From NCBI GenBank assembly GCA_000004695.1, contig CM000151.3, positions 704,001-768,000 of the forward strand: a DNA stretch of 64,000 nucleotides. Direction: 5' to 3'. Source of the DNA: Dictyostelium discoideum (taxonomy: Eukaryota). A program made the position numbers and the translations under genes. The notes under the pieces are model-generated. The model searched no databases, was not told where the DNA came from, and was given only the letters and a program-made list of their open reading frames with translations. This document shows, in pieces, positions 16,887-20,093 of this stretch (positions within the stretch are counted from its first letter, which is position 1; each line of letters opens with the position of its first letter).

Positions 16887-18452
16887 AATGGATGTTGATA
16901 AACAAATGGTAATTATTATTTTTTTTTATTTTTCTATTTTTATTTTTTTATTTTTAAAATTTTTATAATTTTTATAATTTTTATAATTTTTCATTACATT
17001 GGTAATTAATTTTTTTATTTTTTTCATCTATCATTACTATTTTATTTTATTTTTTATTTTATTTTAGTTACAATGGAGAAAAAGAGCATGGTTAAATTCA
17101 AATCAATTATATGGTGAATTAACAGATATTATTATTAAAGATACAGGGTATGTAAATGAATTCTTTATTATTATTTATTATTATTTTTATTTTAAAATTA
17201 CATTACATTTCTAATATAAATAAATAAAAAAACAACCACCACCACCACCACCACCACCACATAATAGATTTACAAGTTCATTTGCAAATTTAATAGATAA
17301 TTCAGAGGTTGATTCATTCTCAAAGAATATAGTAAACATATTTACAACAGCAAATAAAACATTACCATTAATTAAAGATTTAATTTATAATGAATTCAAT
17401 ACCAAAGTATTAGCAGAGGGTGAAGGTTCAATATTACGTGGTAATAGTATAGTTAATAAAATTGAAGGTGCATACGTACGTTTAATCGGTGCAAATTATT
17501 TAAGATTTGTTTTATCTGATTTAGTTACAAAAGTAGTTTTAGATTCTGATTTAAAATTAGAAATTGATCCAAGGTAAATAAAAAATATATACATACATTT
17601 ACATATACATAAAATAAATACTAATTTATTTTTAAAAAAAAAAAGAAAATTAAATGATTATTATGAAGATAAAATTGAATTTGAAAAAAAGGTAGCAGAA
17701 GTTGAGTTGAGAGATAATCAAAAATCATTACATAATATTGCACAACAATTTTTAGATAGAATTACAGATCCAAGTGTTGTTGTTGAAATGCCAAGAGAGA
17801 TTAGAGCAATCGCTGATTATACTGCAGAGAGTGCATTAAGATATGCACCTGAATCATTAGCACCATTGGTTGGTGGTTTCATTATGTTAAGATTCTTTTC
17901 ACCTGCAATCGTCACTCCAGAATATTCAAAATTACTCTCTTCTGAAGTTGCTCCTTCAAAAAGAGCAAAAAGAAATCTTGTATTATTAGCTAAAGTTTTA
18001 CAAGTAAGTATTCAATTATTATTATTATCATCATCATCATCATCATCATCATCACCATAGTATTAATATATTAATATAATTATATTTAATATTAGAATGC
18101 ATCAAATGGTGTTTTATTTGGAGGTAAAGAAGAGTTTATGACATGTATGAATGATTTTATTATTGGAAATAAAGAGAAAATGTCTGCATACTTTAATTTA
18201 ATTTGTAAAGATCCATTAAATCAAAATAATAAATGGTCAGATTTAGAAGGTGTTAAAAGTGCAACAACTACAACAACAATACTCACACCAACTAATACAA
18301 CAACATCATCAAATGGTAGTGGTGGTACAACATGGGCAAAACCAATTGTTGGTGGTTCAAAATGGTTAGCAACTACACCAAGTGGTAATACACCATCACC
18401 TGCAATTTCAAATGCATCATCTGCTCATAATGGTAAATCAAATAATACTACA

Positions 18453-18522
<70 letters not shown>

Positions 18523-20093
18523 GTAATAAAACTACTACGACAGCAACAACAATATCATCAAATAGTTGGGATGTTTATATAAAGAATGTACAAATTCAAG
18601 ATTTATTCGATTTACATAGAATATTTGATTCATATAAAGAAAAGATTGTAAATAAAATTATAAATACAAATAATAATAATGCAAATAATGCAAATAATAA
18701 TAATACAAATAATATAAATAATAAAACAGCAATTAGAGTTATTGAAATTTTAAAAGAATTAGGACCATCACCAAAAACAAAAACTGAAAGAAAAAAGAAA
18801 GAAACAGATGCAGCAGAAGAACCAACAACATCATTACAAAATGGTGCATCGATGGGATCGGCATTTGATGAATGTACACACATGTTGGAGAGATCAAGAT
18901 TCTTATTTCAAGGTCCAAATGATAAGAATGATAGATCAGTGTTTTATTTAATAGTTAATAGAGTTAAACCAGAGGTATTTGATAATGTGAATCCATTAAT
19001 CGCTCATATCTTTAAGGTTATGGATATTTGTGTCAATTCACCCTACACATTGGTGGTGGATATGAGTTGGGCTCATATTTCCAATGATTTAAAGAAAGCG
19101 ATTTTCACTCATTTGCCAAAGTTGGCAGAGATCTTCTCGAGAAAGTATAAAAAGAATATCGATAAGATATTCATTGTACATCCATCAGCATACACTAGAG
19201 CAGTGATCTATTTCATGTCGGCTTTCACAAGTAGAAAGTTAAAGAGAAAGATTCACGATATCTACAATTGGAAAGATCTTTCTCAATATATCGACATTGA
19301 AAACATAGCATTGCCAGAGACAAGCAAGGATTTCATCACAAAGAGTTACCGTGTCGTTAAAGTCAATTCAAAAGGTAAAAGACAGGAACGTTTAATTAAG
19401 TTTACAAGTAACTCTTTATTAAATATCGATCCAAAAACACACAGAATTCAAAATGAAAAAAGAATTAATGAAATCGATGAAATCACCTCAAGATTAGGTT
19501 CAATTGAAATTAATATGAAACTTTCTGGTGAAAGTAAAAAGAGTGGTTCAATATTAGGTACTAAAATTGGTTTCCTTTCAATTAACAATAATAACAATAA
19601 CAATAATGATGATAGTAATGGTAATCATGATATAAATGAATCAAATTCTAGAAAATACATTTGTAATCATGAATTGGAAAGAGATCATATTTTACAAGAC
19701 ATCTTTGAAACTGGTTTTAAAATGGGTTTGCAATCAAAATCAACAAAATCATTACCAACTGAATATAAAGTTATCAAAGTTAATAATGTTGGTAAACATC
19801 AAGAACGTATTTTCAAATTAACAATTGATTCTCTATTGAATTTAGATCAACAAAGAATTAAATCTGAAAATAGTTTTGCTGGTATCGAAGAGGTTATACT
19901 CGATCCTCATGATGATGATATCGTTTGGTTGAAATTTAAATCTGAACCAAGTAGAAGAAAAATCATTTGTACTGTTAAAGGTGAAGGTAAACTATTATTA
20001 GAAGTTTTAACTGATGCTATCAATAAATATCAAACTACTATTGATATTCAAGAAGGTGCTTTGAAACTTGATGCTGAAGAAGGTTTCTTATAA
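16887..20093 (+). CDS. Compact neurofibromin-like RasGAP: RasGAP domain + Sec14/CRAL-TRIO + tandem PH-like repeats
   Basis: Five exons, join(16887..16907,17068..17147,17267..17573,17646..18003,18096..20093). Exon 1 reads MDVDKQM. The RasGAP arginine-finger region reads GEGSILRGNSIVNKIEGAYVRLIGANYLRFVLSD...LEIDPRKL. It is followed by FIMLRFFSPAIVTPE. The Sec14-like part reads FLFQGPNDKNDRSVFYLIVNRVKPEVF...HIFKVMDICVNSPYTLVVDMSWAHISNDLKKAIFTHLPKL. Two ~45-aa repeats follow (YRVVKVNSKGKRQERLIKFTSNSLLNIDP and YKVIKVNNVGKHQERIFKLTIDSLLNLDQ). A (GA)n tract follows the stop codon. Confidence 0.75.

Follow-up and report, generated by a model that had tools for sequence, protein, structure and literature searches.

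Does the gene at positions 16888-20093 encode a complete, stand-alone relative of neurofibromin (NF1), and what is the repeat that it carries at its C-terminus? Both questions arise in the window analyzed here, the whole 64,000-nucleotide stretch of Dictyostelium discoideum DNA to which all positions refer. From the letters alone, an initial annotation had described a compact gene of about 920 aa that retains only the RasGAP, Sec14 and PH-like module of NF1, with an internally duplicated PH-like repeat, and had suggested a link with macropinocytosis. The AT content of the window is extremely high, and its coding islands have ~25-35% GC, a composition typical of Dictyostelium.

Identity and exon structure of the gene

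Four primers designed for the disruption of nfaA, whose sequences were taken from Bloomfield et al. 2015, eLife (PMC4374526), all match the window exactly and at one site each (4/4, with 0 expected by chance). Their sites are as follows:

15367-15389, plus strand: nfaA primer, exact single match
17345-17367, minus strand: primer nfa2xho, exact single match, in exon 3
19165-19188, plus strand: primer nfa2bam, exact single match, in exon 5
20074-20097, minus strand: primer nfa2spe, exact single match, spanning the nfaA stop codon

The arms are laid out as expected, around and inside the gene at 16888-20093. Because four published primers match exactly and once each, the locus is almost certainly D. 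discoideum nfaA (alias DdNF1, Neurofibromin-A), the founding "miniature neurofibromin" (MNF) RasGAP, with the Ras-inactivating role attached to it. The gene is thus already known: it received its name in 2008 and its classification as an MNF in 2015, and it has been the target of at least two knockouts. The nfaA locus is reportedly the DdNF1 of Zhang et al. 2008, the year in which the gene was named, and XP_645456.1 is its reference entry.

An exact look-up of our 920-aa model in the protein collection returned nothing; a 900-aa protein from another D. discoideum isolate (KAM9971256.1) was found instead, 98% identical and differing mostly in the lengths of homopolymer runs. Residue 7 is M in our model and L in that isolate; the site may be polymorphic, or the junction of exon 1 may differ slightly. 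Bloomfield et al. defined the MNF class by an NF1-like domain order without homology outside the center, placed NfaA in it, and inferred the class to be ancient (PMC4374526). Accounts of NfaA/DdNF1 in the literature agree with the present gene in domain order (RasGAP, CRAL/TRIO, PH-like), in small size and in the lack of homology outside the central region. A Balamuthia homologue bears the name "Neurofibromin-A".

The reading frame of nfaA is 2763 nt long, that is 920 codons plus TAA, spread over five exons of the plus strand between 16888 and 20093, with GT..AG introns throughout. This bears out the length proposed initially. The end of the proposed span is also correct (TAA at 20091-20093), while its start lies one base to the right, at the ATG at 16888. 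All the protein strings quoted at the time are present in the joined product: LRGNS...VVLD at residues 90-126, LEIDPRKL at 131-138 across intron 3, and the two repeats at 673-701 and 812-840. The model is composed of:

16888..16908, plus strand: exon 1 (MDVDKQM), start codon 16888-16890, GT donor at 16909
17068..17147, plus strand: exon 2 (LQWRKRAWLNSNQLYGELTDIIIKDTG), colinear with orthologues over both junctions
17148..17267, plus strand: intron 2, including (ACC)8-9 at 17235-17260, acceptor AG 17266-17267
17268..17573, plus strand: exon 3, N-terminal half of the RasGAP domain, R91 codon 17437-17439 in SILRGNS
17646..18003, plus strand: exon 4, RasGAP core including MLRFFSPAIVTPE, R218 codon 17890-17892, K252 codon 17992-17994
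18096..20093, plus strand: exon 5, end of the RasGAP domain, poly-N/poly-T low-complexity linker, Sec14 and two PH-like domains, stop codon 20091-20093

The splice junctions are supported by the colinearity of the joined protein with 20 homologues, free of gaps at the junctions, and the MD... start is kept in the Dictyostelium orthologues. Exons have a GC content of 0.28 and introns of 0.07-0.22, the upper value being due to the (ACC)8-9 run in intron 2. That run is in frame with exon 3, and we considered whether it encodes poly-proline. This was rejected: no AG acceptor occurs in intron 2 before 17266-17267, and an in-frame TAA lies upstream of the run with no ATG between, so the run is apparently non-coding, as judged from sequence.

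Relationship of the RasGAP and Sec14 domains to neurofibromin

According to our domain analysis, the protein contains four domains:

17368..18107, plus strand: RasGAP domain, residues 68-259 (Pfam PF00616, E 7.4e-37, model positions 1-207 fully covered), spanning introns 3 and 4
18852..19328, plus strand: Sec14/CRAL-TRIO domain, residues 508-666, with a Pfam core at 535-664 (CRAL_TRIO_2, E 1.5e-17; CRAL_TRIO, E 1.7e-13)
19347..19724, plus strand: PH-like domain 1, residues 673-798, seven strands and a C-terminal helix in the AlphaFold model
19761..20087, plus strand: PH-like domain 2, residues 811-919, seven strands and a long C-terminal helix, homologous to domain 1

In a search of all solved structures, the best match was human neurofibromin (E 2e-23, residues 37-294), in agreement with the alignment to the NF1 GAP-related domain noted initially; SynGAP (4e-14), p120GAP (3e-13) and IQGAP (4e-10) were weaker. 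A second, weak match in the same search was colinear with the first and fell in the NF1 Sec14 region. All 21 family members compared share R218 (in MLRFFSPAIVTP) and K252, and R91, which lies within SILRGNS and aligns with TLFRGNS of NF1, is conserved in nearly all of them. We take R91 to be the arginine finger and R218 and K252 to be stabilizing residues, as known for NF1 and p120GAP. The GAP domain is thus of the NF1 type found in MNFs, with its catalytic arginine (Pfam E 7e-37, LRGNS aligned to FRGNS), and shares with neurofibromin the FRGNS/LRGNS finger, an FLR-type motif and the conserved lysine.

C-terminal to the GAP, as in other MNFs, CRAL_TRIO_2 is matched at residues 535-664. The Sec14 assignment, which the initial annotation had left open to failure in a profile search, therefore stands at the Pfam level, and AlphaFold gives a Sec14 fold with pLDDT of about 85-95 over the domain. 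In a comparison with the family profile, the Sec14 domain of ARHGAP1 scored best (E 1e-12), followed by the NF1 Sec14-PH (E 5e-7). Like nfaA, ARHGAP1 (p50RhoGAP/Cdc42GAP) joins a GTPase-activating domain to CRAL_TRIO_2 (Sec14/BCH); unlike nfaA, it has a RhoGAP instead of a RasGAP, carries its Sec14 domain N-terminal to the GAP and lacks PH-like domains.

Between the GAP and Sec14 domains, AAT repeats at 18441-18529 and 18663-18724 encode poly-asparagine tracts, which are polymorphic, given that the lengths differ between isolates (920 and 900 aa). When the linker (residues ~425-565) was searched as a single sequence against the PDB, only myosin-7 noise was returned (E ~0.05) and no NF1 match. 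The linker stretch LHRIFDSYKEKI / LKELGPSPK may resemble the GAP-extra region of NF1.

Sec14 is followed by PH-like sequence in both nfaA and neurofibromin. We used AlphaFold on residues 500-920 with a 17-sequence alignment (mean pLDDT 81, pTM 0.71) and obtained a Sec14 unit followed by two PH-like units. When the Sec14-PH part was compared with the PDB by Foldseek, the human NF1 Sec14-PH module came first (E 1e-11, ~305 aligned columns); given the high rmsd, the domains may be placed differently relative to one another than they are in NF1. The two proteins also differ in other respects: the large N- and C-terminal arms of neurofibromin are missing from nfaA (920 aa versus ~2800 aa), a second PH-like domain is present, and neither PH-like domain can be matched in sequence to that of NF1.

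Part of this evidence could be read as chance reuse of domains, nfaA being a generic RasGAP that gained Sec14 and PH independently, in which case "mini NF1" would be a misnomer. The better Sec14 profile score for ARHGAP1 than for NF1 (1e-12 versus 5e-7) fits such a history, as do PH-like domains that match no NF1 sequence and weakly resemble Myosin_TH1 instead, and the existence of a Sec14-PH-PH unit fused to a RasGEF. We nevertheless regard it as unlikely: the GAP is clearly nearer to NF1 (2e-23) than to SynGAP, p120GAP or IQGAP (4e-14 or weaker), the domain order is colinear with that of NF1, whose Sec14-PH module ranks first in Foldseek over ~305 columns, and the published phylogeny puts MNF next to NF1 (PMC4374526). 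A kinship of nfaA with NF1 is the reading that we retain.

The C-terminal PH-like domains

The two ~45-aa repeats that had been reported at the C-terminus are real. When the halves of the tail, residues 667-800 and 803-920, were compared by BLASTP, E was 6e-11, with 44% identity over 50 aa, and hhalign of the corresponding family profiles (17 members) gave E 2.3e-16 with a probability of 98.7% over 65 columns. At the sequence level, the internal repeat is far above chance. The first repeat string lies at 19347-19433, and in strands 1-3 of PH-like domain 1 the residues K677, N679, K681, Q685, R687, K690, F691 and T692 are among many that are invariant.

Their interpretation as a duplication inside one module did not hold. 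Since two full units of seven strands plus helix are seen in the AlphaFold models, the repeats are, on these models, the N-terminal strands 1-4 of two complete tandem PH-like domains, which would have arisen by duplication. The PH-like assignment itself holds in the structure models and fold searches, and a PH-like domain after Sec14 is what the MNF class shows. Pfam, run on residues 665-920 of the full protein, returned nothing, nor was there any match for PH-like domain 1 on its own; the family profile of PH-like domain 2 had no matches among PDB sequences at E up to 1.

A single split or internally repeated PH-like domain would explain why the sequence alignment of the two units is confined to their first 50-65 residues. 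It is very improbable in view of the models, in which residues 673-798 and 811-919 form two units, each with seven strands and a helix of its own, at a pLDDT mostly of 85-95 outside the disordered poly-N loop of domain 1 (residues 735-769, 19533-19637). Likewise, in a library of 1.84 billion proteins, two matched stretches were found in most of the longer family members and in nearly all of those above 700 aa. The single split domain was rejected on the structure models, and the arrangement that we keep is a tandem of two complete domains. The published descriptions of NfaA consulted here mention a single "PH-like" domain; the sequence and models here give two homologous ones in tandem.

We also considered myosin-I tail homology 1 (TH1, PF06017), a lipid-binding PH-like domain to which PH-like domain 2 is weakly similar. 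Domain 2 matched the Myosin_TH1 profile at positions 44-135 with E 1e-4 and 22.2 bits, below the gathering threshold of 31.1. Of the 17 family members, seven reach E 0.01 or better, and only one, the distant member P0017, passes the threshold, with 33 bits. The PH-like domains were not filed as TH1, because domain 2 is sub-threshold and domain 1 has no match. The KVNxxGKxQxR hairpin appears similar to the TH1 signature.

Gene boundaries, function and spread of the cassette

The gene is compact and stands alone, as initially proposed. A multi-exon gene for a Rab-type small GTPase lies immediately upstream on the plus strand (14677-15569). It contains the motifs GESGVGK and WDTAGQERF; ...KRGCC-stop closes its last exon, with the stop codon at 15567-15569, and a spacer of 1.3 kb with 13% GC separates it from the nfaA ATG. 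Orthologues of 844-973 aa, 58-93% identical, are present in twelve dictyostelid proteomes (among them D. citrinum, D. dimigraforme, D. purpureum, Polysphondylium, Tieghemostelium, Heterostelium, Cavenderia and Acytostelium), and in the alignment the homologues start at the same point as our model. Because the Rab-type gene is separate and the orthologues are of similar length, nfaA is not part of a longer gene. An NF1 orthologue would have ~2500-2800 aa with N- and C-terminal arms; nfaA has 920 aa and no upstream exons, and its alignments to NF1 cover the GAP and Sec14 parts only, in line with the small size and absence of outside homology of MNFs.

Among solved structures, neurofibromin matches best in the GAP domain as well as in the Sec14-PH part, which might suggest that the gene is the neurofibromin orthologue proper (axeB/NF1), or that it forms the 3' end of a much longer NF1-like gene with overlooked upstream exons. 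Either reading has practically no probability, given the complete Rab-type GTPase with its own GCC-stop (15567-15569) as the next upstream same-strand coding sequence, the 1.3 kb of 13% GC that follows it, the 844-973 aa of orthologues with the same start in twelve dictyostelid proteomes, and the nfaA primers matching a locus that Bloomfield et al. treat as a different gene from axeB (PMC4374526). Downstream of nfaA, an ORF on the minus strand (20441-20839) is made up of ~5 tandem copies of a 48-bp unit (83-93% matches), which encode EEHHKVGVPRALVAEN units, and just past it lies a perfect (TAT)50 microsatellite (20959-21109, 100% matches).

The macropinocytosis role suggested for this gene is contradicted by published genetics. 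The nfaA knockout does not grow axenically (PMC4374526), and nfaA is described as "involved in chemotaxis, not macropinocytosis" (PMC6304742). In ddnf1- cells, according to reviews of the work of Zhang et al. 2008, Ras activation after cAMP is raised and prolonged and chemotaxis is impaired (PMC9630474). A 2025 paper conflicts with these sources and groups NfaA with RasGAPs "mainly involved in macropinocytosis or phagocytosis". The knockout that had been proposed as a check has thus already been done: a published nfaA knockout was negative for axenic growth. The phenotype of nfaA differs from that of neurofibromin (NF1/AxeB), lying in chemotaxis and Ras adaptation and not in the control of macropinocytosis or axenic growth (PMC4374526). 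Loss of an NF1 orthologue would be expected to allow axenic growth and to enlarge the macropinosomes of Dictyostelium.

Together, the published genetics and the conserved catalytic residues indicate that NfaA shortens chemoattractant-induced Ras activation. Ras-GAP activity is predicted from the conservation of these residues: the NF1-type GAP would inactivate Ras by supplying the arginine finger R91 (SILRGNS), and R218 and K252, by comparison with NF1, would be stabilizing residues that speed GTP hydrolysis by Ras. According to the published genetics, loss of NfaA prolongs chemoattractant-induced Ras activation and impairs chemotaxis, and does not unlock macropinocytic (axenic) growth. The Sec14 and two PH-like domains most likely serve as a cassette that binds lipids or membranes or has a regulatory task; it would position or regulate the GAP and so determine the place and time of its action. 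It may bind acidic lipids through the invariant basic hairpins predicted between strands 1 and 2 (KVNSKGKRQER and KVNNVGKHQER). The targeting of DdNF1 during Ras adaptation is described in reviews as not yet clear (PMC9630474), which makes the conserved PH tandem with its basic hairpins the obvious place to look.

A search of 1.84 billion representative proteins with the profile of PH-like domain 2 (E up to 0.001) gave 153 matches, and most of the longer proteins had two matched stretches. RasGAP and CRAL_TRIO were both present in five of the eight matches sampled. Named family members come from Mastigamoeba, Mastigella, Phalansterium, Balamuthia and Ancoracysta, and also from Pelomyxa. Throughout the family, and beyond the dictyostelids as well, two PH-like domains in tandem are the norm. 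Our addition to what is known of nfaA is a modest one, namely that the tail appears to be two complete homologous PH-like domains whose tandem is conserved across the family. Its residual value is at the level of annotation, in the tandem homologous domains and their conservation, and it carries little weight as a discovery.

Other arrangements were observed among the matches. P0050 (an ENA metagenome protein of 1073 aa) has CRAL_TRIO_2 and the PH tandem followed by RasGEF_N-RasGEF, whereas in P0097 (Trimastix marina, 2065 aa) the PH tandem lies at the C-terminal end, after ankyrin repeats, with no Sec14 detected. We tentatively raise the possibility, which we hold to be less than even, that Sec14-PH-PH, whose two PH-like domains are homologous and faintly TH1-like, is a targeting module of ancient origin, complete in itself and different from the Sec14-PH of NF1 with its single PH-like domain, and that it has been combined with opposing Ras regulators, a RasGAP in MNFs and a RasGEF in at least one uncultured protist. 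If this is true, the cassette may read one common membrane signal and so place both Ras activators and Ras inactivators.
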